A stretch of DNA of 64,000 nt from an uncultured Chloroflexia bacterium (GCA_963700285.1 CAVOXA010000014.1:768001-832000); one strand, 5' to 3'. Shown: positions 12,951-32,347, counted from the stretch's first letter. Made by a program: numbers and translations. Notes: generated by a model from the letters alone, not told the origin.

Positions 12951-14579
12951 CTAGAGCCAGGGCTCGTCCAACGAATCAGAATCGTGTAGACTGGCAAACT
13001 CGTTGGCCGTCGCATCCTCACGAAAGTGTGCGCCCCGGGACTGGCGGTTGTGCCAGGCGGCGCGAGTGACAACCCAGGCCGTCTGGGCAATATTGCGCAG
13101 GCCGATCAGGTCGTCACTCAGCCGGGACGCTCGATAGAAATGGTCTATCTCCTCCCAGATGTGGTTCAGGTCGCGCAGGGCGCGGCCCAGCCGGCGAGTA
13201 CTGCGCGCCAGACCCACATAGAGCCACATGATGTTCTGGATCGTGCGCCGGTCACGGTAGACCAGCACCGGATCGGCCAGGGCACTGTCGCGCACGTCCT
13301 CCCAAGCGGGTACGTCGTCCTCAGTCGCGCGATGCACAGGTTCGCTAGAAGCAATGTCCTGCCCGGCCCGGTCGCCCCACAGCAGTCCCTCCAGCAGCGA
13401 GGTGCTGGCCAGGCGATTGGCCCCATGGACGCCCGTACAACTCACTTCACCGACAGCATACAGCCCATCAATGGTTGTACGCCCCCAGCCATCTACCAGC
13501 ACACCCCCACAGGCATAGTGAGCCGCAGGCACAACGGGGATCGGCTCAGAAGTTATGTCTAATCCTACCTCAAGACAGGCCGTATAGATCGTCGGGAAGC
13601 GCTCGCGGATATGGCCGGCTCCCATATGGCTGGCGAGGTCGAGCAGCACGTGTGGATAGCCATGGGAGATCATCTCGTGATGGATGGATCGGGCCACAAT
13701 GTCGCGCGGAGCGAGGTCTCCCCAGCGCGGTGCATAGCGGTCCATAAAGTGCCGTCCATCTGGCGTAAAGAGCTTGGCCCCTTCGCCGCGTACGGCCTCG
13801 GAGATCAAGAAATTCTCAGCGCCGGGGACCGCCAGCGTCGTAGGGTGAAACTGGATGAACTCGGCGTTGACGACCCGGGCACCCGCGCGGTAGGCCATGG
13901 CCAACCCATCGCCCCGGGCACCCGGAGGATTGGTCGTGTGGCGGTAGATGCGGCCCAGTCCTCCTGTAGCCAGCACCGTAGCCCCGGAAAGGACACGGTG
14001 GACAACACCGGTATCCTGGTCCAGGACGTAGGCCCCGTGGCAGGTGATGGGCTGGTAGATGGCCAGTGGGTCGCGGGCGTGGTGGGAGGAAGTGATGAGA
14101 TCCACCGCCGTGCGGCCCGTACCCAGGCTGACGTTCGAGGCTTGTTGCAGCCTGGCCACCAGGGCCTCTTCGATGGCGCGGCCGGTGGCATCACCGACGT
14201 GCAGGATGCGCGGGACCGAGTGGCCCCCCTCACGAGTGAGCGAGAGCATGCCCCTGTCGTCCAGATCGAACTGGATCGCGGCCTCGTCGATGAGCAGGGT
14301 TCTGACCAGTTCAGGGCCTTCCTCCGCAATGAGGCGAACCGCTGCTGGCAAGCTGAGTCCGGCGCCAGCGTTCAGGATGTCCTGGGCCAGCAGGTCGGGA
14401 GAATCATCGGTGCCCCGGGCGACGATACCACCCTGTGCATAACGCGTATTGGATTCTTGCGCGCTAGCCGCGCGGGTGATAAGCAGGATCTGGCGCTGGC
14501 GGTCCTTGGCCAGGCGGAGGGCTGCCGCCGCCCCGGCTATGCCTGAGCCGATGACAAGTACGTCGGTTTCGATGGGCAT
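12951..14579 (-). CDS. nadB: L-aspartate oxidase
   Basis: GSGIAG, AQGGI, EGGHS..RILH, FIQFHPT, LISEAVRGEG, HGANRLASTSLLE. Confidence 0.97.
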   Translation of the reverse strand: MPIETDVLVIGSGIAGAAAALRLAKDRQRQILLITRAASAQESNTRYAQGGIVARGTDDSPDLLAQDILNAGAGLSLPAAVRLIAEEGPELVRTLLIDEAAIQFDLDDRGMLSLTREGGHSVPRILHVGDATGRAIEEALVARLQQASNVSLGTGRTAVDLITSSHHARDPLAIYQPITCHGAYVLDQDTGVVHRVLSGATVLATGGLGRIYRHTTNPPGARGDGLAMAYRAGARVVNAEFIQFHPTTLAVPGAENFLISEAVRGEGAKLFTPDGRHFMDRYAPRWGDLAPRDIVARSIHHEMISHGYPHVLLDLASHMGAGHIRERFPTIYTACLEVGLDITSEPIPVVPAAHYACGGVLVDGWGRTTIDGLYAVGEVSCTGVHGANRLASTSLLEGLLWGDRAGQDIASSEPVHRATEDDVPAWEDVRDSALADPVLVYRDRRTIQNIMWLYVGLARSTRRLGRALRDLNHIWEEIDHFYRASRLSDDLIGLRNIAQTAWVVTRAAWHNRQSRGAHFREDATANEFASLHDSDSLDEPWL

Positions 14580-14601
14580 TGTACGCTTCTTTCAGGTGTT
14601 A

Positions 14602-14643
14602 TACGTGCTGCGTGTTTCGTGTTGCGTGTGTCGTGTTGCGTCA
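14602..14643 (+). repeat. Heptamer tandem repeat (TnCGTGT)x6
   Basis: tacgtgc tgcgtgt ttcgtgt tgcgtgt gtcgtgt tgcgtca. Confidence 0.85.
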
Positions 14644-14774
14644 CCACGGCGCCGGGCCGGGTGCAGGTCATTGCGTTCCCCCCGCTCGCAACCGGTCCGT
14701 GACAGATTGCATGGACCTGAAACAGCCGGAAGCCAAGTTCTGCTGTGTGAAAGGTCGCCAGGCCGGAAACTCGA

Positions 14775-16685
14775 TCAGACAGCAAGCATGTTTTCCAGGG
14801 CAATGCGCGCCCAGCGTGCGGTCTCGGTGTCGACGGTCACCTCATGGGTCACCTCGCCATCCACCAGTGCCCCCAACAGTTGCGCCAGGTTCTGGGGTGT
14901 AATCTGGCTCATGGTGCGGCAGAAAGGCGCAGTCTCGGCCAGAGAGATGATCTGCTGGTCGGGGTGCTCCTGCTGCAGCCTGTAGACCAGGCGCGATTCC
15001 GTACCGATGGCCCACCGGGTTCCCGCTGGGGCCGCTGCAACCTGGTCGATGATGTAGGCCGTGGACCCTACCCGGTCGGCCAGATCAACGACCTCCATCC
15101 TGCATTCGGGGTGGACAGCGACCAGGATGCTGGGATAGCGCTGGCGCAAAGCGAGCACATGCTCGGCACGAAAGCGAGCGTGGACATTGCAGGCGCCCGG
15201 CCAGAGGACTACCCGGGCTCCGCGCAGGGCGTCAGCATCGGGTGGCAGATAGGAGTCCCAGACCAGTAGTTCGTCCAAGGGGATGCCCATGCTTCTAGCT
15301 GTGTTCCGTCCCAGATGCTGATCGGGAAAGAAAAAGACACGGGGTCGTTGCGCCAGCGCCCAGCGAAGAACCCTTTCCGCGTTGCCCGAGGTGCAGACGA
15401 TGCCGCCATGCTGGCCGCAGAATGCCTTCAACTCAGCAGAAGAGTTTACGTAGGTGACAGGCGTGAACTCGGCTTCGGCGTCTCCAAAGATAGCATCGAG
15501 CTGGCTCCAGGCCGTCTCGACCGCCGCTGGTGTGGCGGTATCGGCCAGGTAGCAGCCGGCCGTGGGCTCAGGGATCAGAACGCGCTGACCAGGCTTGGCC
15601 AGGATCGCGGCGGTTTCGGCCATGAAATGGACACCGCAGAAGACAATGAACTCGGCATCAGCCTGCGCGGCATCGCGGGAGAGCTTGAGGGAGTCGCCCC
15701 GCAGATCAGCAAAGGCAATCACTTCATCACGCTGGTAGTGATGTCCCAGAATCGCCAGGCGGTCCCCCAGCTTTGACTTGTACTCGGCCAAAAGTACGGC
15801 CGGATCGGCTACTACCGGTTGCTGCTTAGGGGTAGAAACCTTCATACTGATGTCGAGGGCCTGCACCGAATGGGTCAGCGCCCCGACCGAGATATAAGCA
15901 ACGCCCGTGGACGCGATCTCAGCAGCCCGCTCTTCTAGGACCCCGCCAGAAGCTTCCAGGGGTACCCGCGCGCCAGCCATGGCCACGGCCTGGCGCATTT
16001 CTGCCAGCGTCATGTTGTCCAGCATGATCCGGTCGATGGCCGGCTGGATGGCCAGGGCTTCCTCCAGTTCAGTCAGATTCCTGACCTCGACCTCGATGGG
16101 CAGCTTGGGATAACCCGCTCGGGCGCGCTCGACGGCCAGCCGGATGCTGCCTGCTGCATCGACATGGTTGTCCTTGATCAGGATCATGTCATAGAGCGAC
16201 GTGCGATGATTGGCGCCGCCCCCCATGCGGACACTATACTTGTCCAGTAAGCGGTAGCCTGGCAGGGTCTTGCGGGTATCCAAAATGATGGCACCGGTAC
16301 AGGCGACTGCATCCACAAAGCGCCGGGTAAGGGTGGCGATACCCGACATCCGCTGCAAAAAGTTCAGGGCGGTGCGCTCCGCCGCCAAGAGCCCGCGACC
16401 AAGCCCATGAACCTCGGCTACCAGCTCCCCGGCCACGAGCTCCTGCCCGTCGGCCACGTGGGCGACAAACTCGATGCCAGGGTCGAGGCGCCGGTACACC
16501 GCTTCGGCCACCGGCAGGCCGGCAAGGATGCCGGCGGACTTGGCGACAATGCGACCGTGCAAGATGGCATCGGGCAGCAAGGTCGATTCACTGGTTGCGT
16601 CACCCGGGCCAATGTCCTCGGCCACGGCCAGATCTATCAGCGGCTTGGCTGCACGTACGAGCGTATCTACGTCTGTTTGAGTCAA
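14775..16685 (-). CDS. nadC-nadA: Fused quinolinate phosphoribosyltransferase (NadC) - quinolinate synthase (NadA)
   Basis: N-half ERTALNFLQRMSGIAT, DTRKT, IKDNH, EASGG; C-half LGHHYQ, GDSL, FCGVHFMAE, three Fe-S Cys (GCYLA, ACNVH, FCRTM); TTG start 9 nt after AGGAGG. Confidence 0.93.
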   Translation of the reverse strand: MTQTDVDTLVRAAKPLIDLAVAEDIGPGDATSESTLLPDAILHGRIVAKSAGILAGLPVAEAVYRRLDPGIEFVAHVADGQELVAGELVAEVHGLGRGLLAAERTALNFLQRMSGIATLTRRFVDAVACTGAIILDTRKTLPGYRLLDKYSVRMGGGANHRTSLYDMILIKDNHVDAAGSIRLAVERARAGYPKLPIEVEVRNLTELEEALAIQPAIDRIMLDNMTLAEMRQAVAMAGARVPLEASGGVLEERAAEIASTGVAYISVGALTHSVQALDISMKVSTPKQQPVVADPAVLLAEYKSKLGDRLAILGHHYQRDEVIAFADLRGDSLKLSRDAAQADAEFIVFCGVHFMAETAAILAKPGQRVLIPEPTAGCYLADTATPAAVETAWSQLDAIFGDAEAEFTPVTYVNSSAELKAFCGQHGGIVCTSGNAERVLRWALAQRPRVFFFPDQHLGRNTARSMGIPLDELLVWDSYLPPDADALRGARVVLWPGACNVHARFRAEHVLALRQRYPSILVAVHPECRMEVVDLADRVGSTAYIIDQVAAAPAGTRWAIGTESRLVYRLQQEHPDQQIISLAETAPFCRTMSQITPQNLAQLLGALVDGEVTHEVTVDTETARWARIALENMLAV

Positions 16686-17044
16686 TGGTTCATCCCTCCT
16701 CTGGGCAAGAACAGGTGGGCACGACGATCTACAGGCCAGCATCATCAAGAGATCAAGCCCTCCCGGGTGGCGGCTGGTCGCTCCGCACCGGCACCAACCC
16801 TCAACAAGTTCAATAGACAGCAACCAGGGTACGTTCTGCGTGCCCTTCGACTGCCAAGTATACCACCAAGGTTGGGCAGACACCAAGTTGGGTTGCCCAA
16901 TGGACTTGAGCCGAGATGAAAGATGGTCCCCTCCCCCTCGAGCCAGGGGAAGGGGACAGGGGGTGGGTGTCGTAGCCAGGCGGGGACATCCGTGAAACAG
17001 ATGAGGACTGTGGGCCTAACTCCTTTTGATGATCACGCGATGAA

Positions 17045-17728
17045 CTACGCGAGGCTCTCAAAGCCAGCCTGGCCTGAATTTAGTTCCTCCATCTCTCCAG
17101 TGACACAAAAGACCACACGCTCACACACATTGATGACGCGATCAGCTGTGCGCTCGAGGTTGTGAGCAGCCCAAAGGAGGTAGTTGGATTGTTCAATTGT
17201 GCTGGCATCCTGCAAGATGTAGGACAGCAGTTCGTGAAAAACTTGGTTGTAGAGATCGTCCACTTCATCATCCATAGCGGGGATTGCACGGGCTCGCTCC
17301 ACGTCGCGCTGTACAAAGGCATCCAGCGCACTGCGCAGCATATAGCGCGCCTTTTCCGCCATGACGGGCAGGTCAATGAGCGGCTTGATCAGGGGCTCTT
17401 CTCCGATCATCAGATTGATGCGGGCAATCCCCTTGGCATAATCACCGATACGCTCCAGTTCACTGATGATCTCTAACATGGCGGCCAGAAAGCGCATGTC
17501 CCCTGCCATCGGCTGCTGGGTAGCGATGAGGGTCAGGATGTCAGACTCAATCGCGAAGCGCATCCTATTGATAGCACGATCGTGGTTAATGATCCGCTGC
17601 GACTCAACAAAGTCCCTCTTTTTGAGGGTTTCCACTGATTGAATTAGAACCTCCTCGACCAAACTGCCCATGGCCAGAAGCTCGTCTTGCAAGCGCTGTA
17701 ATTCCTGATCGAATACCCGACGCACCAT
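17045..17728 (-). CDS. phoU: Phosphate signalling complex protein PhoU
   Basis: QQPMAGDMR, ELERIGDYA, DDEVD, LERTADR..N.CE. Confidence 0.96.
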   Translation of the reverse strand: MVRRVFDQELQRLQDELLAMGSLVEEVLIQSVETLKKRDFVESQRIINHDRAINRMRFAIESDILTLIATQQPMAGDMRFLAAMLEIISELERIGDYAKGIARINLMIGEEPLIKPLIDLPVMAEKARYMLRSALDAFVQRDVERARAIPAMDDEVDDLYNQVFHELLSYILQDASTIEQSNYLLWAAHNLERTADRVINVCERVVFCVTGEMEELNSGQAGFESLA

Positions 17729-17737
17729 CCAATCCTC

Positions 17738-18463
17738 CTAGAGAACTTTCGCAGACAGCTTTTGGGGAACCGTGTGGGGCCCCTGCTCTGCAGGCAGGGG
17801 CTGACTCTCCGGCATGCTTCCCAACACCGAGAAGATCACCCAGTCGCAGATGCCAACCACTCTTTCCGCCGCACGTTTGAGATTGTAGGCCGCCCGCGAT
17901 ATGTATACAGCCTGATTCACAGCCCGGGGTCGACTCTCCATGACCCCAAGCAACTCCTGGTAGACCTGTTCGTACCGAGCATCTACCTTCTGGGTGTCAG
18001 CCAGGAGGATGCGAACAGCGTGCACATCGTGCTGCGCAAAAGCCTCCAGCGCACCGCTCACCAGCGCCTGGACACCTGCGCCCAAGCGGTGAATTTGGGC
18101 TACCGGCTTGCGCAGATGGTATTGCACAGCGAGGCCATTGGCCCTGGCTACCCTTTGGCCGTGTTCTGCAATCCGCTCCAACTCCGAGGCAATCTCGATC
18201 ATGGCCACAGCACGGCGGAGTGCAACACCCAGCGGGCGCTGCTCGGCAATGAACTGAAGGCAACCCATCTCGACGGCAAGCCGCTTCTGATGGATCTGCC
18301 TCTCGGTATCGCCCAACCACTCCAAGCCATCCAGATTGCAACACTGGAGTTGGTCCACGGACATGAGCAACAGGCTCTCAACCAGGCTGCCTAAGGCCAG
18401 TACCTCGTCCTGAAGATGCTGCAGATCCGAACCCAATTCTTGTAAGGACACAGTTGACCTCAT
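17738..18463 (-). CDS. Second, divergent PhoU-domain protein
   Basis: ELERIAEH, LKRAAER..GICDWV; several acidic motif residues replaced. Confidence 0.8.
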   Translation of the reverse strand: MRSTVSLQELGSDLQHLQDEVLALGSLVESLLLMSVDQLQCCNLDGLEWLGDTERQIHQKRLAVEMGCLQFIAEQRPLGVALRRAVAMIEIASELERIAEHGQRVARANGLAVQYHLRKPVAQIHRLGAGVQALVSGALEAFAQHDVHAVRILLADTQKVDARYEQVYQELLGVMESRPRAVNQAVYISRAAYNLKRAAERVVGICDWVIFSVLGSMPESQPLPAEQGPHTVPQKLSAKVL

Positions 18464-18544: not shown

Positions 18545-18964
18545 TCACAAAAGAGGAGGAAGGATGACGGATAACTGGCTGCGGACTTCATCGCGCACTC
18601 GCCGGAAAAGCGACAGGCGCTCAGACTCACTGCCTGTCGCTTTGGCCGGATCATCAAAGCCTATGTGCAGCCTGTGCCCGCGCCCCAGCCAGACCGGACA
18701 GTTCTCAGCCGCGTCGTCGCAGACGGTCACCACCAGATCCAGATCCCTGTCTCGGAACTCCTCCGCGGATTTGGATCTTTGGCCCGAGATATCTATATCT
18801 AGCTCGGCCATGACTCGGACCGCGAGAGGGTGTACGTAGCCGGCTGGGTCGGTACCAGCGGAATAGGCCAACCATTCCTGAGCAAAGTCATGATTGACCA
18901 GGCCTTCCGCCATCTGGCTGCGGCACGAGTTGCCAGTGCAGAGGAAAAGGACTTGCTTCTTCAT
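18545..18964 (-). CDS. arsC: Arsenate reductase, LMW-PTP (thioredoxin) type
   Basis: CTGNSCRSQMAEG, TVCD..ENCP, FDDP. Confidence 0.9.
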   Translation of the reverse strand: MKKQVLFLCTGNSCRSQMAEGLVNHDFAQEWLAYSAGTDPAGYVHPLAVRVMAELDIDISGQRSKSAEEFRDRDLDLVVTVCDDAAENCPVWLGRGHRLHIGFDDPAKATGSESERLSLFRRVRDEVRSQLSVILPPLL

Positions 18965-19082: not shown

Positions 19083-19898
19083 TCAGCCAAAGCGTCCTGT
19101 GATATAGTCTTCCGTCCGCTGATCCTTGGGGTTGGTAAACAGCGACTTGGTTGGGCCGTATTCCACGAGGTAGCCAGCGCGGTCGTCATCCATATTGAAA
19201 AATGCGGTATAGTCTGACACACGCGCGGCCTGCTGCATGTTGTGGGTAACGACGATGATGGTATAGTTCTTGGCCAGTTCGCGCATCAGATCCTCAATTT
19301 TTAGGGTCGCAATGGGATCCAGGGCCGAGGCCGGCTCATCCATCAGAATGATCTCTGGGCGCACAGCGATGGTCCGGGCAATGCACAGGCGCTGTTGCTG
19401 CCCGCCAGACAGCGAATATCCGCTCTCATCAAGTTTGTCCTTCACCTCATCCCAGAGTGCCGCCTGTCGCAAGGATTTCTCGACAAGTTCGGCCATATTA
19501 CCCTTGAAGCCATTGATCTTTGCCCCCCAGGACACGTTTTCGCTGATGGTCTTGGGAAAAGGGTTGGGTTTCTGAAACACCATGCCCACGTGGCGCCGGA
19601 CTTCTACAGCATCTATGCCATCGGCATAGATGTTCTGCCCGTGAAAGAGCACTTCTCCCTTGGCATGCGCTGTGGGCACCAGCTCATTCATGCGGTTGAA
19701 GGAACGCAGCATCGTACTCTTGCCGCAACCGGAAGGGCCGATGATGGCCGTGATCTTGCGCGGCTCGATCTTCAGATTGACATCCTTGATCGCCCGAAAG
19801 TCGCCATAGTAGACCTGGAGATTGCGCGCTTCAACGGCATACTTGCCGTTGGATGATAGATACGTAGGAGCAGGAGTCAGGTTGCTCATGTCAGTCAT
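19083..19898 (-). CDS. pstB: Phosphate ABC transporter ATPase
   Basis: [44 protein letters not shown]. Confidence 0.98.
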
Positions 19899-22045
19899 GT
19901 AATCCTCCTCTTCTGTGCCCGGTTGCGTAGGAGCACGGCGGCAGCATTCAGGGCCAGGAGTAGGGTCAAGAGCACGAGGATGGCTGCTGCCGCGATGTTC
20001 CGGAACTCATCCTGTGGACGCGACGTCCACTGGTAGATTTGGATGGGAAGCGTCGTAAACTTGGAGAACGGGCTATTGGGGTCGACGGTGATAAAAGTCG
20101 AGGCGCCGACCACGACCAGGGGTGCGGTCTCACCGATGGCGCGGGAAACCGCCAAGATGGTGCCCGTCAGGATACCCGGAAGCGAGCCGGGCAGGACGTG
20201 GTGCCAGATTGTCTGCCATTTGGTCGCTCCCAGGCCATAACTGGCCTGGCGCAGGGAATTGGGCACAGCCCGGATGGCCTCCTGGCCGTTGATGATGATC
20301 AATGGCAGGATCAATAGCGCCAGGGTCAGGCCGGCCGATATGATGGTCCGCCCATTGGCCGTAGTGGGATCGGTCAAACCCAGGAGTGTTCCGCTGGTCA
20401 GAGGTTCAAGAGCACGGACAAAGATGGCCAAGCCCAGCATGCCGTAGATGATGGAGGGCACACCGGCCAGGTTGTTGATATTGGTCCGGATTAAGCCATT
20501 GAGCCAGTTGTCTGCGGCGTACTCTTCCAGGTAGATGGCTGCGCCAACCCCCAGCGGAAAGGCTACACACACCGTAATGAGGATCGTAAACAGGGAACCA
20601 AGGATGGCCGTCCGCACGCCCGCTCGCTCCGGCTCGGGTGATTGGGGCGTGATCAGAAACTTGGGGTTGATCCAGGACACAAACTCGACATCTGCATCTG
20701 GATACTTGGCAGCGGCCTCGGCCAAGACCTCCGACCGCCTGAAAACGGAATCAAAGAGCGACCACGTCTGCTCGATCTTGGGTTCAACGACTCGCTCCAG
20801 AACCAAAGCATGCACATCCTCATGGGTACGCTCCACAAAAGGCATCTCGCTCTCATAACGCCGGAAGAGACCTTTGGACACGTTGGCCTGGAGAATGCCG
20901 ACCAGCGTCCCTTTGGGCAGATCCTGTAGGTTCTGATCCAGCACGGATTCGACGAAAAAGTCCAGGGTCCCGCTATCAGCCCCCGGAATGTAGCGTACGA
21001 TGGGCTCATGAGGCCAGTCCGGATCGACATCTGACCAATAACCAGCCTCTGCAAAGATCTGCTGTAGCTGCCCAGAGGTCGCCTCAGTCAAGAATCCGTT
21101 CTCCTGGCTGACGACAACGGCTAGGGCATCGGTTCCGACCCGGAACTCTGCTGGCTCTCGCTTCCCCTTGCGGCACAGCTCAACCTCTATGCGCTTGATG
21201 CGCCTGCTGGCGTTCGAGATCTCTGTGTCGCGGTCCACGCAGAATCGCCGGAAACCAGCGCTGCTGCCGATGCTCTCTACAGAGATCTCTCCCGAATAGC
21301 CATCGTTCTGGAACCTCTGAACCATACGCGCAGAGAGCGGAGCGACGGTAGAGCTTCCGACCGTTGTCATGTCACCCGCTACCGACTCGGGGCGCACAAC
21401 TGGCAGTTCACCAGCAACCGGCAGGCCCATCGCCTCCAGCCAGGCCGCTTTGGATTCGCGGAGCGCCTCGTCGCTGAGAGGGAAATAGCCGACAACCTCA
21501 ATCTCCTCATCAACGTGAGTCAGGTAGTAGTTAAGAAAGGCAGCGACATGGGGGAATTCCTGCATCAAGCCGGCCGTCGAGTAGAGGAACAGCGGCCGCG
21601 ATAGCCCATAGTCGCCAGAGTCCACCGTATCTGCGGTCGGAGCAACACCATCGACCGCAAGGGATCGTAGCTCTCCGGCATGGCTCTGATAGTAGGCATA
21701 GCCAAAGAAACCAATGGCATTGGGATTATCTGCGATCTTTTGCGCAAGCTCTTCATCGTCCTCGCTGTGCACCGTGTTGGGCAGCGAGAGCACGCGCTCC
21801 TTCTGCGCAGTCGCCGCCAGAGCCCCAGGGTCCATGCTGTTCTGACCAGCCACATAGCCAAAGGCGCCATTGATGATGTTGAGCAGCAGCGCCGTAAGCG
21901 CAATGATGCCAATTATTGTGGATACCTGTAGCACAAGCTGCCACGCTTTCGCTGTACGGTAGCGACCGGGGAGGTTGTCCCCAAAGTCATCGCCCTTGCT
22001 GGGGAAATCTATCTCCCGCGCCCCCGCCTTTCGTCGACGAGCCAT
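19895..22045 (-). CDS. pstA: Phosphate ABC permease PstA with inserted, circularly permuted PstS domain
   Basis: C-terminal PstA core ([28 protein letters not shown]); aa ~81-372 align to the PstS C-half followed by the N-half. Confidence 0.93.
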
Positions 22046-23238
22046 TACTCGTATACCTCCCGGAAGCGCCGCACAATGCGCTGGCTGATGATGTTGAGGG
22101 ACAGAGTGATAAAGAACAGGACGAGTCCGATAGCAAAGATGCTGTTATAGTCGATGGAATCGTAGCTGATATCGCCGCCGCTGATGCGCACGATATGGCC
22201 TGTCATGGTTTCCGCTGAATCAAAGGGGTTCAGCGTAAAGTTTGGCCCCGCACCAGCAGCGATGGCGACAATCATCGTCTCGCCGATGGCGCGCGAGATA
22301 GAAACGATAAAGGCGGCCGTGATCCCCGACAGAGCCGCAGGGAGCACCACTTTGATCGCTGTCTCCCAGCGTGTAGCGCCCATGCCGTAGGCCGCCTCCC
22401 GGAGGGATCGCGGTACTGCGCTCAAAGCGTCCTCGCTCATGGAACTCACAAGAGGCAAGATCAGAATGCCGATCACGATGCCAGCGGAAGCCGTATTGTA
22501 GATCTGGACGGTCTCAACGCCGAAAATGGTGCGCAACAAAGGCGTCATGAAGGTAAGAGCAAAATAGCCATAGACGACTGTCGGAATCCCAGCCAGTACC
22601 TCCAGCACTGGCTTCAGGATGCCCCGCGCCCGGGGTGATGCGTACTCGCTCAGATAGATGGCTGCGCTCAGGCCAAGAGGGAGGGCGACGACCATGGCCG
22701 CAAGGCTGGTCATGAGCGTGGCGGTGACTAGGGGCCAGATCCCGAAATGTCCAATCTGGGGATTCCACTTGGTACCGGTCGCAAACTCAACCAGCGAGAC
22801 CTTGTTGGCCACGAACACCTCGCTGCCGATCTTGTGGGGAACAGCCTCTGTTCCGTTCACGGCGCGCTCGACTGTGTACAGGGCGGCATCTACATCGAGG
22901 ATGAGCATCTCTTCCTCGCTGATGCGGACGACGTCGTCCACTTCCAGGCTGGCGCCACCTGTACTCAGTTTCAGTATGGACTGGCTATAGCCAACAGGCG
23001 CCTCGATCTGCTTGTTCGTCTGCTCCCAAGAAACCTCGGTAAAGAAACTGAGCGACTCCTTGGCCAAAAAGTACACGATCCCAATGGTGGTAAAGATGGA
23101 CAAGACAGCGCATGCGAACAGAAGGGTCTGTATGACGCTTTCCCCGATGCGGGGGCGTTTCCGCAAGGCTAGCTTCAGGTCAGCGTCTGACATATCTATG
23201 ATGGTACTGCTTTGCCCCACCGCCATCTCTTTCTGCAT
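22045..23238 (-). CDS. pstC: Phosphate ABC permease PstC with extracellular insert
   Basis: [29 protein letters not shown]; extra ~78 aa after TM1. Confidence 0.95.
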
Positions 23239-23305
23239 CTACTCCCTCCCGTGACAACGCGGCAGGATACGGGGATACCTGTACCCTACCGCCTGATAGA
23301 TATGG

Positions 23306-23340
23306 TGGCCGGGGAGGGAGGCGTTCTCCCTCCCCGGCCA
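23306..23340. other. Strong pstS-pstC intergenic hairpin
   Basis: TGGCCGGGGAGGGAG-gcgtt-CTCCCTCCCCGGCCA, perfect 15-bp stem without U-tract. Confidence 0.75.
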
Positions 23341-23390
23341 TGGGCCATGCTCGTGAGGAGGCCCAACGGGTAGAAGCTATTTCCAGAAAG

Positions 23391-25399
23391 CTACTGGCCT
23401 ACGGCACCCAGCCAGGACTGCTTTGCAGCTTCCAGGCCCTCAGGGCTGGCCGGGAAGTAGCCCACATCCGTGATCTCTTCGTTCACATAGGTCAGGTAGA
23501 AGTTGATAAAGTCAGCCACCTGTGGCTTCTCTACCATGATGCTGGCCGTCGAGTAGATGAACAGCGGCCGGGCCAACGGATACTCGCCCTTGTCTACCGA
23601 CTCGGCGTTGGGCTCCACACCCTCGATCGACAGAATTTTGAGCACATCCTGGTTCTCGTCATAGTAGGCGTAGCCAAAGAAGCCAATGGCGTACGGGCTG
23701 CCCAGGATGCCTTGCACCAGCACGTTGTCATCCTCGCTCAACTGCGTGTTCGACGCCTCCAGGATCGGCTCCTCGTTCTCCTCAAAAACCTCTTCGACAA
23801 AGAAGTCAAAGGTTCCGCTGTCCGTACCAGGAATGAACCGCTGGATCGGCTCCCCAGGCCACTCCGGATTCACGTCCGACCACGTTTCCGCCGTCGAAAA
23901 GATCAGCGCCAGCTCCTCAAGCTCGCCCCAGTCCACAAAGTCGTTGTCCTGGCTAACCACTACTGCCAGAGCATCCGTGCCTACACGGAACTCGATCGGC
24001 TCGCGCCCTATCGCCTGGCACGACTCCACCTCCGAGTCTTTGATCGGCCGGCTGGCGTTGGAGATGTCCGTCTCCCCTTCCACGCAGAACCGCTCAAACC
24101 CAGCCCCGCTTCCGATGCTGTCGATGGTGATATTGTCCGCGTAGCCCTCGTCCTGGAACCGCGCTGCCATTGCCTCCGACAACGGGAACACCGTCGAACT
24201 GCCGGCCGTCACGATGTCGCCCGCTCACTTCCAACGGATTCACCTCAGGCAGCATTGTGCCTTCGGCTGCTGCGGGTTGCTCCGGCGGCGCTGGCGCTGC
24301 CACACTCAGAGCATCCATCCACGCCTGCTTGGCGGCGTTTAGGGCATCGGGGTTGGACGGGAAGTAGCCGACGCCCGTGATCTCTTCGTTGACGTAGGTC
24401 AGGTAGAAGTTGATAAAGGATCGGCCACCTGTGGCTTCTCTGCCATGATGCTGGCCGTCGAGTAGATGAACAGCGGCCGGGCCAGCGGGTACTCGCCTGC
24501 GTCCACCGACTCTGCGCGTGGGCTCTACACCCTCGATCGTCCAGGATGGTCGAGCGCATCCTCGTTCTCGTCATAGTAGGCGTAGCCAAAGAAGCCAATG
24601 GCGTACGGGCTGCCCAGGATGCCTTGCACCAGCACGTTGTCATCCTCGCTCAACTGCGTGTTCGACGCCTCCAGGATCGGCTCCTCGTTCTCCTCAAAAA
24701 CCTCTTCGACAAAGAAGTCAAAGGTTCCGCTGTCCGTACCAGGAATGAACCGCTGGATCGGCTCCCCAGGCCACTCCGGATTCACGTCCGACCACTTCTC
24801 CGCCGTCGAAAAGATCAGCGCCAGCTCCTCAAGCTCGCCCCATCCACAAAGTCGTTGTCCTGGCTAACCACTACTGCCAAAGCATCCGTCCCTACACGGA
24901 ACTCGATGGGCTCCCGCCCTATCGCCTGGCACGACTCCACCTCCGAGTCTTTGATCGGCCGGCTGGCGTTGGAGATGTCCGTCTCCCCTTCCACGCAGAA
25001 CCGCTCAAACCCAGCCCCGCTTCCGATGCTGTCGATGGTGATATTGTCCGCGTAGCCCTCGTCCTGGAACCGCGCTGCCATTGCCTCCGACAACGGGAAC
25101 ACCGTCGAACTGCCGGCCGTCACGATGTCGCCGCTCACTTCCAACGGATTCACCTCAGGAAGGGCCAAGACCGTTACTTCCTTGACCACTTCCACTTCCT
25201 TGACGACCTCTTTCTCTACTTCTTGGGTGACGACAACCACCACTTCTTGAGTGACGACGACTTCGACTTGCTTCTCGACTTCCTGAGTGACGACGACCTC
25301 AACGGTCTCCTTCACCACCCCAGGTGCTGGGGTCGAGCCGCATGCTGCTAGGAACAGGACCACGAGCAGCAATCCGATGACCCAAAAACTCCGACGCAT
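23391..25399 (-). CDS. pstS: Phosphate-binding lipoprotein PstS with two near-identical tandem domains (several frameshifts, probably errors)
   Basis: Lipobox LAAC; VVVTQEVEK linker; GSSTV/SIGSGAG/SGTFDFF/GYAYY motifs each occur twice; frame breaks near 24840, 24540-24420 and 24220. Confidence 0.88.
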
Positions 25400-25472
25400 G
25401 TTGTCTCCTCCATTGAAACAGATGGTATTGTGGCAAACCTTGGCTCACCAAGAAAAAAGATACCACCTCACG

Positions 25473-25533
25473 ATTAACATTTAATCAAAACTAGGTAAAG
25501 AAGGGGTTAATGCCTTGTTAACGATTTGTTAAC
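25473..25533 (-). promoter_or_regulatory. Pho-box-like array upstream of pstS
   Basis: attaa/atcaa/gtaaa/gttaa/gttaa/gttaa at exact 11-bp spacing (25473, 25484, 25495, 25506, 25517, 25528). Confidence 0.75.
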
Positions 25534-25674
25534 AACTGGTGCCAAGCTGGGCACCATTCTCCGGCACAGGTGCTACTTACAGGGGTGACTGGATTGAGCA
25601 ATGTCGGCCAGCAGGGTACCAGGGGAATGGCCATAATCGAGCAGGACCCGCGAATAGCCTGGGCTCTGGCCAGC

Positions 25675-25729
25675 CTTAACCGATTGTTAACCGGAGGCTA
25701 ACCAAAGCTTAATGCGGGGCGTGTATACT
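25675..25729 (+). promoter_or_regulatory. Pho-box-like array plus -10 element upstream of CBM48-like gene
   Basis: TTAAC(25676), TTAAC(25687), CTAAC(25698), TTAAT(25709), then TATACT at 25724. Confidence 0.7.
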
Positions 25730-25835
25730 CATTTGAGTTGATCACAGAGGATGCTATCTTGGAGCGGGGTGCAGAGGGTGAAGCTTCTACCACCGGTTGC
25801 ACCACGTCTACAGCGAGGACCATCACAGGAGAGAG

Positions 25836-26150
25836 ATGATTCGCAAGAGGCCAACAAAAGATGAGAAGAAGGTAATCGTCGAGTTTGAGGTACCCGGCTC
25901 AGTCTGGGCTGAGCGCATCAACTTGGTCGGTGATTTCAACGATTGGGACCGTGAGAGCCTGCCCTTTGTGCGCAGTCGTGATGAGAACTGGCACGTCGAG
26001 CTGGAATTAGAAAAGGGATCTGAGTATCGTTTCCGCTATCTGGTCGATGGGGACAACTGGAACTACGACTGGCACGCCGACAAACATCTACCAGGAACGG
26101 ACGGCGCCTGCGATGCAATCGTGGTGGCCAGGGTCGGACCGGCATCCTAA
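25836..26150 (+). CDS. Stand-alone CBM48-like (isoamylase early-set) domain protein
   Basis: 'LVGDFNDW','YRFRYLVDG..W..D..AD'; AGGAG RBS. Confidence 0.85.
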   Translation: MIRKRPTKDEKKVIVEFEVPGSVWAERINLVGDFNDWDRESLPFVRSRDENWHVELELEKGSEYRFRYLVDGDNWNYDWHADKHLPGTDGACDAIVVARVGPAS

Positions 26151-26181: not shown

Positions 26182-27946
26182 CTACTCCACTGACAGAAGG
26201 GCGAACGAAAAAGTACTCCCCTCCCCTTCAACACTCTCCGCCCATATCCGGCCGCCATGGCCCTGCACAATGTGCTTGGCAATGGCCAATCCCAGGCCTG
26301 TGCCCCCCCCGCTGCGCGCCCTGTCCGCCTTGTAGAACCGCTCAAAGATCCGGGGCAGGTCGTCAGCCGGAATCCCCACACCGGTATCCTGTACTGAGAA
26401 CACGATCTCATCGGCGCTCTGGTCTGCTGAGATGACCACCCTACCCCCTGGCGGCGTGAACTTGACCGCGTTGTGGACCAGGTTCGTGACCACCATCTGT
26501 ATTCGGTCTGCGTCGGCAAGGACCAGTGGCAACGGCCTGGTTAAGAAGATGGTGAACTCTATGCCTGCCCGCTCGGCTTGCGGGCGCAGCCTGTCGGCTG
26601 GTGGTACAATCACCTCGGCGGCCGGCGTGGGCTCCAGGTGTAGAGGGGCTTGCCCCGACTCGACACGCGAGAGTTCCAACAACTCCTGCACCATCTGCGT
26701 CAAGGTGTCCACCTCGCTGTCCATGCGCTTGAGGAAGCGCTTGGCCGCGGGCGGATCCTTGATCGCCCCCCCACTTAGCGTATCCACCAGGGCTTTCAGC
26801 CCGGAGAGGGGCGTGCGCAGCTCGTGGGAGATGTTGCTGATGAAATCGCGGCGCACCGTCTCCAGGCGACGGATTCTGGTGAGATCCTGGAGAATAATCA
26901 GATAGCCTTGCGCGCCCACTTCTCGAAAAGGGGTAACGATCGCCTGCAGGAAGAGGTCATGGTGGCTGATATCAACGGTTTCGACCTGCTCGTCACCCGA
27001 CTCGCGGCATCGCTTCCACAGTTCGATAAGTTGGTGATGCGGGGCAGCCTGGGCGAAGGTACGCCCTACCGCTTGCGCCTCGCTTGTACCCAGGATCCGG
27101 GCTGTGGCCGCATTGATGAGCTCCACCCGGCCATGCTCATCAGTAATCAGTACCCCGTCCGCCATGTGGTCGAGCATGGCAGCCAGGCGAGCCCGCTCCT
27201 CGGCCAGGTTCGTCACTTGAACCCGAAGCTGGTCGGCCATATGGTTGAAAGCCTGGGTGAGCTGGCCAATCTCGTCGCGCGAGGTGGAGACAAGACGGGC
27301 ATCGAGATCCCCTTCCGCCATCCGTTCTGCGACCAGGGTAAGACGCCGTATTGGCCGCGCCATGCGCTCGGCGATGACCAAGGCCATGAGGGCAGCCAGA
27401 AGAGCCGTGACCAGGCCCGCGGTAACAATGTTCTGGCGGAGAAGACCGACATTGGCCTCGATCTCTCCCAAAGGCAGCGAAACACGGACGATGCCGAGCA
27501 CTTGCTCTCCATCTGGTGCAGTTGCTGCATAGGCGACGTACATCATGTCATAGCCGACAGTCTTGCTGAACCGAGTGCTACCAGCATGTCCTGTGTTCAG
27601 CGCACCCTCAACTTCTGGCCGGTTCAGATGGTTGTCCATTTGGGTCCGGTCGGCCTCAGAGTCACCCAGCACGACACCATCGGGGCTGATGATGGTGATT
27701 CTAGCCTCCAGCAGAGCTGGACCAGTGCTTGGCCAGCGCGTCCAGCGCGTCAGCAGGCTCGCCGCTGTCCAGTAGCGGCGCAACACTGTCGGCCAGCAAC
27801 CGGGCATCGGCCAGCAACTGGGCATCCAGATCAGCCAGCCGTGCCTGCTGGACCTGGTTCGATACATACAGGGTTAGCCCCAGAGTCGCCACCAGGATGA
27901 GGACCACATAAGGCACTGCGATACGCCAACGGAGGCCATGGAACAT
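26182..27946 (-). CDS. phoR: PhoR-like sensor histidine kinase (HAMP-PAS-HisKA-HATPase); one frameshift near 27720
   Basis: N-terminus MFHGLRWRIAVPY in a second frame; NHLNRPE, SHELRTPL, NAVKF, DTGVGI, GGTGLGL. Confidence 0.88.
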
Positions 27947-27952
27947 CTTTCG

Positions 27953-28693
27953 CTATCCCTCAAAGCAGTAGCCCACCCCGCGCACGGTGACGATCCGGTT
28001 CGGGTTGGCCGGATCAGCCTCGATCTTTTCCCGCAGCCAGCGGACGTGGACGTCAACCGTACGACTGCCACCGCCAAAATCCCAGCCCCACACCCGGTCC
28101 AGGATCAGATCGCGTGTGAGGGCAATGCCCTTGTTCCGGGCAAGGTACAAAAGAAGGTCGTATTCCTTGGGCTTCAGCCGCAACGGCTCGTCGTCACGCA
28201 GGACCTCATGGCGGTCCAGGTCGATGACCAGGTCATCAAAGGCCAACTGCTCGGTTTCGGGCTTGGCATCTTCAACCGTCAACTCCTCGCGAATGAGTCG
28301 CACCCGGCGCAACAGGGCCTTGACCCTGACCAGAAACTCATGCATGCTAAAAGGCTTGGTCAGATAATCATCGGCTCCCATCTCCAGGCCCACCACCCGG
28401 TCCACCTCGCCCGCCCGAGCGGTGAGCATCAGAATGGGCACGATCGTCTCCCGTCGCAGGATGCGACAGACCTCAAGGCCATCCAGGCCGGGGAGCATGA
28501 TGTCGAGCACGATCAGATCTGGCTGTGCCTCGCGAGCAACCTCCAGAGCAGTCAGACCATCGTTTGAGGTCAGGATCTCGTATCCCTTAGCGGCCAGGTT
28601 GTACTCCAGGGCCTCTAGCAGGGTCAGGTCATCCTCGACGACCAGGATCCGATTCTTCGCGCTGTGCTGCTTCTGTTTCTTTATCTTGCCCAC
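27953..28693 (-). CDS. phoP: OmpR/PhoB-family response regulator
   Basis: [35 protein letters not shown]; GTG start inferred. Confidence 0.9.
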
Positions 28694-28914
28694 GGCTCCA
28701 GCTCCCGATTCTTCTCCGGACAGACGATAGGATCGCCTCGAGGTCCAACCAAAATGAGGTGCTGCACACAAGCACGATCCGGGCTGGACCTGGCTGGCTT
28801 GAAAGGCCCCGATCGCGCACCATGCAACAGCAGTGTATACCAATCTGCCCAATTTGCCAAGAAAGGGTCCTGGACCTGCACCCTCGCTCCAAGTCCAGTC
28901 TCATTGAAGACAGC

Positions 28915-29648: not shown

Positions 29649-30569
29649 ATGCCAACAGTTGATCTTGAGGATCGTGGGACTGTCGCCTACTCCTGGACCG
29701 GGAACGGGCCGGAAACCCTTGTCCTGGTCAACGGTTCAGTCTTCAACTACCACCAATGGGACAAGCAGGCGCTGCCCATTCTGCAGCGGGAACTGGGCGG
29801 CCGCTGCCGCTTTCTCCAGTACGACTATATCGGCATCGGCGGGTCCTCGGCCAAGACCGCCCCCTTTCGAATGCTTGACCTGGCTGACGAGCTGCACGAC
29901 CTGCTGGATGCGCTTTCCGTCGATGGTGTTCACCTGCTGGGCATCAGCAAAGGCAGCCTGGTTGGCCAAGCTTTCCTGATCCGCCACCCCGACCGGGTCC
30001 AAAGTTTCTGCGGACTGGGCAACCCCAACCTGCTCTCCAAAGACTCGGCGCAGGTTTTTGACACCTTTCAGGGGCGCCTCGACGCGCTAGAGACGCTGAA
30101 GGAAACGTGGCCGCAGCGGATCAGCCGTGACAACTATGCCCGCATCTTTAACCAGATCTATGTGCCCTCCCTGTTCGACAAGCCCTACACCACCCTGTCC
30201 CTCGCAGAGCGGCTGCGCGCGCTGCTGGTACGGCGCATGATATACCCCGCCCTGGAGGGGACCTACGTCCAGACGATGGTAGATCTTTTTGATTATTATG
30301 TGAACTATGCCTCGGAGGAAGCACTGGCCTTTGCCCAGGGGCTGCCGCAGGTACGCGGCATCCCGATCCTTCTGCTCAATGGCACCGCCGACACGACGAC
30401 GCCTCTGTACATGTCGAGAGAACTGGCCCAACTGCTGCCCGAGGCTGAACTGGTCGAATTTGAGGGAGTGACCCACATGGGACCGATGATGCTGAAAAAA
30501 GAGGCCAAGCCGGTCTTTGACCGGTACCTCGCCTTTATGCAGCCCGAGGGTATGACGCGCAGCACTTGA
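29649..30569 (+). CDS. Alpha/beta-fold hydrolase
   Basis: Nucleophile elbow GISKG; 'G..D..TP'; 'GVTH'. Confidence 0.8.
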   Translation: MPTVDLEDRGTVAYSWTGNGPETLVLVNGSVFNYHQWDKQALPILQRELGGRCRFLQYDYIGIGGSSAKTAPFRMLDLADELHDLLDALSVDGVHLLGISKGSLVGQAFLIRHPDRVQSFCGLGNPNLLSKDSAQVFDTFQGRLDALETLKETWPQRISRDNYARIFNQIYVPSLFDKPYTTLSLAERLRALLVRRMIYPALEGTYVQTMVDLFDYYVNYASEEALAFAQGLPQVRGIPILLLNGTADTTTPLYMSRELAQLLPEAELVEFEGVTHMGPMMLKKEAKPVFDRYLAFMQPEGMTRST

Positions 30570-30631
30570 AACCACCACCAGTGGAACAGCCGGCCGGACC
30601 GGTAATGGGGACACAAGCAAGGAGGAAAAAC

Positions 30632-32347
30632 ATGGAGAAACCCTGGCTAAAGCACTACGACGAAGGGATACCAACCACCATCGATTACCCCCGCATCCCG
30701 CTGGACCGGCTCCTGGCGGATTCGGCCGCCAAGCATCCCAACCAGACCGCCACCATCTTTGGCGCCATGGTGGGCTCGCGTCTGATGGATGCCAAGCTGA
30801 CCTACAGGCAACTGGACAATGCCGTGAACCGCTTCGCCGTCGGCCTGCAGGAACTGGGTGTCGCCCAGGGCGACCGGGTGGCCATCATGCTGCCCAACTG
30901 CCCGCAGTTCATCATCGCCGCCTATGCCACCTGGCGCATCGGCGGCGTCGTCGTGTGCTGCAACCCACTCTACGTGGACCGGGAGATCGAGCATTTGATC
31001 CAGGACTCGGGCGCGGAGACCTTTGTGATCATGAGCCAGTTCTACGACCGCATCAAGAGCATCCGGGGCAACACCGGCCTAAAGCGGGTAGTGGTGACCA
31101 ACATCAAAGAGTATTTCCCCGGCTTGCTCAAGTTCCTCTTCTCGCTGGCCAAAGAAAAGAAAGAGGGCCACAAGGTCGACATCTCCGCCGACGCTGGACA
31201 CCCACTGGTTCCAGGCTATCCTGGAAGGGGCGTCGGCCGGCGCCGGACCGGCGGCCGGTGGAGATCGATCCCGACGAGGTCGCGACCCTGATCTACACCG
31301 GCGGTACCACCGGCGGCCCCAAGGGCGCCCAGCTCAGTCACTACAACCTGGTCTCCAACGCCGTCGCGCTGAACATCTGGGTCAAGAGCCGGGAAGCGCA
31401 GGACATCCTGCTGGCCGTCATGCCCTACTTTCACAGCTACGGCCTGACCGTGGGCATGAACGTCTGCATCGCCAACGCCATCACCATGGTCCAGATCCCC
31501 AACCCGCGCGACATGAGGCACGTCCTCAAGTCCATTGAGACCCACCGGGTGACCTACTATCCCGGCGTGCCGACCATGTTCGTCGGTCTTCTCAACTTTC
31601 CGGACAGGGACCAATACGATCTGATCGTCGCTGCGCTTCGCGGTTAGCGCCGCCGCGCCGCTGGCCCCCGAGACACAGCAGCAGTTCCAGACCGTCACCG
31701 GTGGCCTCCTGCTCGAAGCCTACGGTCTGACGGAAACCAGCCCCTGCGCCACCATAGACCCCGTCGACCGGCCCGCCGACAATTCCCTGGGCGTGCCGCT
31801 GCCCGACACCGATGTCAAGATTGTGGATGTGGAAACCGGCGACGAGGAGCTGGAACCGGGCGCCATCGGCGAGATCATCATCAAAGGCCCGCAGGTCATG
31901 AAGGGCTATTGGAACCTGCCCACCGAAACCGCCAACGCCCTGCGGGTGGGGCCCGACGGCCAGCCAGGCTGGTTCTACAGCGGCGACATTGGCTACATGG
32001 ACGACGATGGCTACTTTCACATGGCCGACCGCAAGAAGGACATGATCATCGCCGGCGGCTTTAACATCTACCCCGCTGACGTCGAGGCGGTACTCTTTGA
32101 GCACCCCAAAGTTAAAGAAGCAGCGGTCATCGGCGTGCCCGACGCCTACCGCGGCGAGACGGTCAAGGCCTACATCGTGCTCAAGGAGGGCGAGACAGCC
32201 ACGGCAAAAGAGATCATCGCCTTCTGCAAAGAGCGCATGGCCGCCTACCGAGTACCCCAAATCATCGAGTTCCGCGACGACCTGCCCAAGTCCATGATCG
32301 GCAAGGTCCTGCGCCGGGAGTTGAGGGAGGAAGAACAGCAGAAGTGA
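30632..32347 (+). CDS. Long-chain fatty-acid--CoA ligase (frameshifts near 31200-31260 and 31625)
   Basis: YTGGTTGGPKG, YGLTE, SGDIG..D.DGYF..DRKKD, LPKS..GK spread across frames. Confidence 0.85.

Follow-up and report, generated by a model that had tools for sequence, protein, structure and literature searches.

The stretch of DNA considered here, 64,000 nucleotides from an uncultured Chloroflexia bacterium (GCA_963700285.1 CAVOXA010000014.1:768001-832000; hereafter the window), carries a phosphate-uptake (pst) locus whose permease subunit PstA contains, in its first outer loop, a complete, circularly permuted domain of the phosphate-binding protein PstS. On the minus strand, pstS, pstC, pstA and pstB are followed by an ArsC-like gene and two phoU genes; a phoB/phoR-like pair lies upstream. 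PstA, PstC, PstB and the second of two PstS domains pass their NCBIfam cut-offs within a single operon, pstS being frameshifted as assembled. The channel residues are kept in the alignment, with R635/E639 of PstA equivalent to Escherichia coli R220/E224 and R316/E320 of PstC equivalent to R237/E241. Judged by its sequence, the locus is a member of the PstSCAB phosphate importers; its named homologs come from Anaerolineae, Caldilineaceae and other Chloroflexota. The transporter genes and the parts of PstA are as follows.

19083..19898, minus strand: pstB, ATPase, 271 residues (TIGR00972, 393 bits; cut-off 343)
19895..22045, minus strand: pstA, 716 residues, open frame (TIGR00974, 253 bits; cut-off 193)
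20933..21820, minus strand: circularly permuted PstS domain in the loop between transmembrane helices 1 and 2 (TM1-TM2) of PstA, about residues 76-371 (sequence and model; colinear with 4H1X)
21781-21431, minus strand: C-half of the insert, followed by a 17-residue linker
21379-20942, minus strand: N-half of the insert, after the 17-residue linker
20639..20929, minus strand: scaffold domain in the outer loop of PstA, which insert-less PstA of the related group has as well
22045..23238, minus strand: pstC, 397 residues (TIGR02138, 259 bits; cut-off 196)
23391..25399, minus strand: pstS (domain 2: TIGR02136, 225 bits; cut-off 207)

PstA is thus laid out as TM1, the PstS C-half, the 17-residue linker, the PstS N-half, a small outer scaffold and the permease core. 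The insert holds both PstS lobes in permuted order and is complete in sequence and fold: the AlphaFold model has a pLDDT of 86-97 per 10-residue block across PstA residues 71-410, and TIGR02136 matches the insert in two stretches with 184 bits, under the cut-off of 207. An alignment of 23% identity (E 0.009) places the permutation break within the C-lobe, near residues 151-158 of mature E. coli PstS. Because the break lies in the C-lobe, both chain ends would leave from that lobe and the N-lobe would form a single continuous piece. In the model, both ends of the insert are tethered through short connectors. An assembly chimera is ruled out, since all 120 listed PstA homologs carry PF12849 and 119 of them PF00528 as well. 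The third, permuted PstS within PstA that a sequence-only reading of the locus had proposed is therefore real on the evidence of sequence, model and homologs; it is conserved and apparently undescribed.

The PstA of relatives varies in other ways too. The scaffold is enlarged by a repeated short helical unit in L229, L200, L211, L216 and L223, reaching several hundred residues in L229, and an insertion of about 30 residues with paired cysteines occurs in the scaffold of L167, L168, L183, L192, L220, L062 and L083, with or without the PstS insert. L237 has a long additional insertion within the permease core, after membrane helix 2 or 3. Insert-less PstA of the scaffold type was also found in Spirochaetia, Acidimicrobiia and a Verrucomicrobia bin (L047, L049, L088, L060, L064, L077, L061, L065, L087, L095, L096 and L099); these are mostly nested among Chloroflexota rows, and transfer or binning error is possible.

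Predicted ligand and docking residues of the insert

Residue retention was compared at positions where free PstS is conserved to 90% or more, across the 30 loci that hold both an insert and a free PstS. The eight positions that we take, from PstS motifs, to be phosphate ligands are all kept in the inserts (8/8), each in 38-40 of 40. Docking positions were defined as the equivalents of E. coli contact residues named in the available part of PMC12976172, mapped through the same 23%-identity alignment. Only one of these 13 is kept across inserts, against 48 of 105 other conserved positions; when the comparison is confined to polar and glycine positions, the counts are 1/13 and 18/44 (Fisher p 0.042, with kin treated as independent). 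Counted per sequence, inserts keep 2-8 of the 13 residues (4 in the window insert) and free domains 9-13. One docking-equivalent glycine is present in 181 of 181 free domains, yet in only 7 of 40 inserts. Free PstS keeps its docking-equivalent residues equally in loci with and without an insert.

The inserts have positions conserved among themselves alone, and share a mean pairwise identity of about 47%. The ratio of non-synonymous to synonymous substitution (dN/dS) of the insert halves is 0.08-0.37 wherever dS is measurable (19 pairs), and full inserts are under purifying selection.

Spread of the insert and of its companions

The sequence-only reading had joined the PstA insert, a two-domain lipoprotein PstS and a PstC with its own extracellular beta domain into one new architecture, and had named in advance a survey of the three traits in related genomes. 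A scaffold-domain query gave matches in 153 of 401 genomes of the class. The survey covered 141 loci, namely 138 of the 149 listed matches outside the window's own, two others and the window; 11 were not used (one unpublished, the other ten mostly close to the end of a contig), and seven more matches were unlisted. PstA carries a full insert in 31 of these loci, a half-insert in 12 and none in 96, two being uncallable. Full inserts are spread over eight family codes. A second, overlapping set comprised 80 named loci; its 14 full inserts are all from Chloroflexota, and 0 of 12 loci of other phyla have one.

Just two of the 141 loci combine all three traits: the one in the window and a locus from another genome of its genus. 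A further two, with insert and beta module, stop at contig edges. PstC is plain in 25 of the 30 callable full-insert loci, and the beta module occurs in 17 of 94 insert-less ones. Multi-domain PstS was found in 10 of 23 callable full-insert loci, 0 of 11 half-insert loci and 3 of 87 insert-less loci. In paired tests on a 184-row FastTree permease tree, from which frameshifted and truncated loci were dropped, full insert and multi-domain PstS changed in the same way in 5.8 of 13 independent pairs and oppositely in 0.1 (median p 0.03, range 0.008-0.375), whereas insert and PstC module gave 0.2 and 1.0 of 14 pairs. Insert and multi-domain PstS thus appear to co-vary, weakly, and the PstC module reads as a decoration independent of the insert. 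The three-part architecture did not hold: the traits largely occur independently, and their conjunction in the window is, on these counts, a chance stacking of modules. What stands of the proposed multivalent capture is the weak link between insert and multi-domain PstS; the beta module falls outside it. Nor was support found for transport without free PstS, as free pstS is present in all 27 callable unique full-insert loci (nine are not callable) and keeps there the docking-equivalent residues that the insert has mostly lost.

Among 400 other genomes of the phylum, in which 29 same-class genomes matched, no listed match outside the window starts before query position 16 and no permease-insert junction was seen, in a sample that did not re-find known fused forms. 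None of the longer fused forms (1254-3580 residues) scored, which is weak evidence. In a plasmid search, 14 of the 15 matches listed (of 79) are annotated as ordinary PstS. Among the sequencing data sets listed as matching the locus, none is RNA, and the DNA sets have small shares, too little to claim a habitat. In a same-genus genome (G001), insert-bearing operons lie on C13 and C18 (L143 and L230), one with a single and one with a double PstS; they are heavily frameshifted, and the genome has 4% contamination.

The 40 intact inserts are monophyletic with support 1.0 in a tree of 221 domains, and 20 or more changes of state are needed to explain where the insert occurs on the permease tree. 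Sister loci bear deletion scars; L213, for example, retains the start of the insert. One gain followed by many losses is the simplest and likely reading of these trees; the tree is unrooted, and recombination is an alternative. Half-inserts (PstA loops of L158, L173, L176, L178, L187, L196, L199, L201, L206, L212, L217, L218, L067, L071 and L078) consist of the C-lobe only, with about 113 extra residues; they fall into two separate clades, and the GSST, xASR and SGT motifs occur in 0 of 14 unique forms. The present-day tandem pstS was considered as the source of the insert and rejected, because the inserts form one clade and are 45-49% identical to the PstS of the same locus, whereas 13 of 15 pairs of tandem copies share 93% identity or more. 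A single origin of the insert, from an ancestral tandem pstS, is likely. The insert offers a clear natural case in which circular permutation permits both the insertion of a domain and the clean loss of one lobe.

The remaining features of the transporter genes and the upstream region are listed here.

22801..23028, minus strand: 76-residue beta module in the TM1-TM2 loop of PstC (phrog_1101, model, BFVD)
25342-25340, minus strand: lipobox cysteine (Cys20) of PstS, followed by a V/E/K-rich spacer
25135-24310, minus strand: PstS domain 1, frameshifted as assembled, followed by a short linker
24224-23406, minus strand: PstS domain 2 (TIGR02136, 225 bits)
25495..25532, minus strand: proximal Pho-box-like array, four TTAAC-like sites with an 11-bp period, facing pstS
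25676..25713, best read on the plus strand: distal Pho-box-like array, four TTAAC-like sites with an 11-bp period, towards a divergent CBM48 gene

The extracellular beta domain of PstC was confirmed. The window loop has 79 residues, compared with 1-8 at the same place in most relatives, and the module is predicted to be all-beta (pLDDT 84.6). Of 32 module members, 25 match phrog_1101 (tail protein), and matches in BFVD reach TMq 0.77 with modules of phage tail and virion proteins; no PDB entry matched at E<=0.001, and an Atlas search gave only leads, all under 0.8. A role as a surface spacer or in adhesion would be a guess. Unrelated insertions occupy the same PstC site in L075 (loop of 155 residues) and L022 (43 residues), and the site seems to accept foreign domains.

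The two-domain lipoprotein PstS stands as to its lipobox and its two domains; as assembled, it is not one open reading frame. The domains are 94% identical (804 of 854 aligned bases), and the frame is broken by indels near 24843, 24550-24520, 24420 and 24222. Compensating changes, +1 at 24830 and -2 at 24419/24420, are each present in contigs of three of four independent runs; one contig at 24830 differs by only two letters in 228 bases, the other contigs belong to relatives, and no independent contig spans the pstS repeat. Since a neighboring gene is also split, these contigs make an assembly error, and an intact gene in the organism, likely. The neighboring signs of indel error are a split acyl-CoA ligase gene (30566-31647) and a kinase whose N-terminus seems out of frame (26182-27867). 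Two- and three-domain PstS are common in Chloroflexota; examples are the entries of Ornatilinea apprima and Phototrophicus methaneseepsis (645 and 621 residues) and a three-domain PstS of 940 residues. The identities of the tandem copies indicate that they are recent or homogenized.

The long Pho-box-like arrays are likewise present and beyond chance, four sites being found in 0 of 1000 shuffles; their length is ordinary for the group, as chains of at least three sites occur in 48 of 115 relatives (0 of 115 shuffles). No other arrays of this kind occur in the 7.05-Mb assembly, and the two fit the 11-bp unit on which Pho boxes are built, as described in the available part of PMC4415409. Arrays occur in relatives with and without the insert, most of the examples shown being insert-less operons. 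Behind the distal array, divergent from pstS, lies a gene for a small CBM48-type protein (25833-26150, plus strand), a possible member of the Pho regulon.

Three further features flank the operon.

17045..18463, minus strand: two phoU genes, downstream (PF01895)
18545..18964, minus strand: ArsC/LMWPc-like gene between pstB and phoU (PF01451; TIGR02691 below cut-off)
26182..28852, minus strand: OmpR-type regulator and HAMP-PAS-HisKA kinase, upstream (Pfam)

By position, the last pair would be phoB/phoR. The ArsC/LMWPc-like gene within the pst-phoU run may protect against arsenate entering through Pst. Downstream of phoU (window 12951-16886, minus strand) are what we take, from sequence, to be an L-aspartate oxidase-like gene and an apparent NadC-NadA fusion (open reading frame of 703 residues). 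The same genome (G000) has two more pst-like operons (C5:84324-87472 and C7:81144-84722), and Pit (PF01384) was not found in this 89%-complete genome, which is not proof of absence.

Possible roles of the insert

The reading that we favor, for which the chances stand about level, is that the insert is an optional accessory phosphate catcher held off the gate, while the lipoprotein PstS remains the carrier that docks on PstA/PstC and delivers. The permuted PstS in the first outer loop of PstA would bind phosphate beside the gate; its C-lobe would be held by both chain ends, leaving the N-lobe free to close on phosphate. Phosphate freed by the insert might be recaptured by nearby PstS, and each transporter would gain binding sites, an effect that the recurrent tandem duplication of pstS would have too. 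An off-gate binder is favored by the loss of predicted docking residues, the retention of all eight predicted ligands, the presence of pstS in 27 of 27 callable loci and the long life of dead half-inserts, taken together. In E. coli, PstS rests with its N-lobe on PstA and with its C-lobe on PstC, and the contact residues are named (available part of PMC12976172). If held at the docking site of PstC, a dead lobe should stand in the way of PstS, so the half-inserts count for an off-gate position.

Several points weigh against this reading. The docking map is a sequence map, drawn through the 23%-identity alignment (E 0.009) and blind to surface exposure. Overall, evolution is about two times faster in inserts than in free PstS (mean tree distance 1.42 versus 0.68), so some of the docking-residue loss is general relaxation. 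All 30 inserts compared retain the K175 equivalent, the strongest of the C-lobe contact positions, and the window insert has a serine at the S39 equivalent, like E. coli. According to the available part of PMC12976172, the P1 loop of E. coli PstA contacts the PstS C-lobe, the lobe that is tethered here, and K167/P169, the residues facing PstC in E. coli, are 10-15 residues away from the permutation break; both fit productive docking. Finally, a high-affinity binder that does not dock would bring only a passing gain, and its benefit is not obvious.

Such docking is what the next explanation proposes, which we consider rather unlikely: the insert would be a donor on a tether, taking turns with PstS to dock at the gate, with the covalent link offsetting weakened contacts. 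This is the relay idea of the sequence-only reading, on the pattern of GlnPQ or OpuA. The tether sits on the C-lobe, after TM1, and in E. coli TM1 packs on the partner subunit with the C-lobe over PstC (PMC12976172, available part). The retained ligands and K175 equivalent suit a donor, and tethered GlnPQ domains do compete for docking (available part of PMC8025302). The drift of 12 of the 13 docking-equivalent positions, with the otherwise invariant glycine in only 7 of 40 inserts, argues the other way, as do the persistence of half-inserts devoid of binding motifs and the fact that pstS is never lost in callable loci. Both connectors are also short in the model, compared with the flexible 19-residue linker of GlnP given in the available part of PMC8025302.

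A regulatory role has also to be weighed. Stated generally, that a binding domain in a permease loop does not deliver, but senses outside phosphate and gates either the carrier PstS or the PhoU/PhoR signal, is unlikely. The specific form, a built-in outside phosphate sensor whose closing changes either the access of PstS or the conformation of the transporter, thereby adjusting uptake or PhoU/PhoR signaling, is distinctly unlikely. It would suit the short double tether, the retained ligands, the remodeled docking face and the insert-specific conserved positions; the operon is flanked by two phoU genes and a likely phoBR pair, and transporter conformation is the Pho signal proposed in the available part of PMC12976172. 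Against such coupling, the insert changes state at least 20 times, and insert-less operons have the same arrays. Were this regulatory role true, a receptor would have been turned into a regulator carried by the transporter itself, and the full, half and empty forms found in nature would allow comparison.

That the insert is a tolerated passenger of an old recombination, kept folded inside an essential protein and now being lost, is very unlikely: repeated loss, scars, half-inserts, faster evolution and two further pst-like operons in the genome would suit it, but 38-40 of the 40 inserts still carry the non-structural ligand residues, with a mean pairwise identity of about 47%, yet these residues are gone in half-inserts, and the insert co-varies with multi-domain PstS. 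The full, half and empty PstA forms of close relatives make a ready series on extra binding sites, uptake and the reporting of outside phosphate.

Comparison with known systems

Large folded domains in the outer loop of a type I permease are known from the maltose importer, where the P2 loop of MalF is one, as in PstA; unlike the insert, MalF P2 is not known to have a substrate-binding fold, and it holds the binding protein. The window locus shares with E. coli PstSCAB (PDB 9K3S/9K3X/9K3Y; PMC12976172, available part) the gene set, the permease cores, both channel arginines, the LSGGQ ATPase, the PhoU genes and Pho-type 11-bp arrays. Unlike in E. coli, the PstA loop of the window holds a scaffold and a whole permuted PstS, the PstC loop a beta module, and the PstS, of TIGR02136 type, is a lipoprotein with two domains.

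A permuted PstS is already known as a separate protein. The top Foldseek hit of the insert, PstS2 of Streptococcus pneumoniae (SP_2084; 4H1X; TMt 0.71), is colinear with it in the permuted order (profile 89-336 to chain 49-263), and Bacillus subtilis OpuAC (3CHG, 2B4L) is also among the fold matches. Both are separate binding proteins rather than inserts, with 18% and 13% identity, respectively.

Binding domains covalently joined to a membrane subunit, giving several sites per transporter as in the window PstA, are familiar from GlnPQ and OpuA. The binding domain of OpuA is terminal. GlnP domains form a terminal tandem on a flexible 19-residue linker and dock, according to the available part of PMC8025302. 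The window insert departs from terminal fusion through one flexible linker: it is internal, held at both ends and permuted, and a separate lipoprotein PstS is kept. Permease-PstS fusions exist in the ESM Atlas, where Bacteroidota (641 residues) and Bacillota (655 residues) clusters carry PF00528 and PF12849 on one chain, a comparison of domain content alone. Fused binding proteins are mentioned, without an internal case, in the available part of PMC8276074, and no description of an internal permuted PstS-in-PstA fusion was found in the open-access literature as covered by listings and abstract openings. Permuted PstS and fused binding domains are thus already known, and it is their internal placement that is apparently undescribed. 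Fused binding domains of ABC importers have so far been described as terminal docking donors; if the off-gate reading is true, a permuted domain that lies inside the chain, is tethered at both ends and retains its ligand site while shedding its docking face would represent a different use of the fold.

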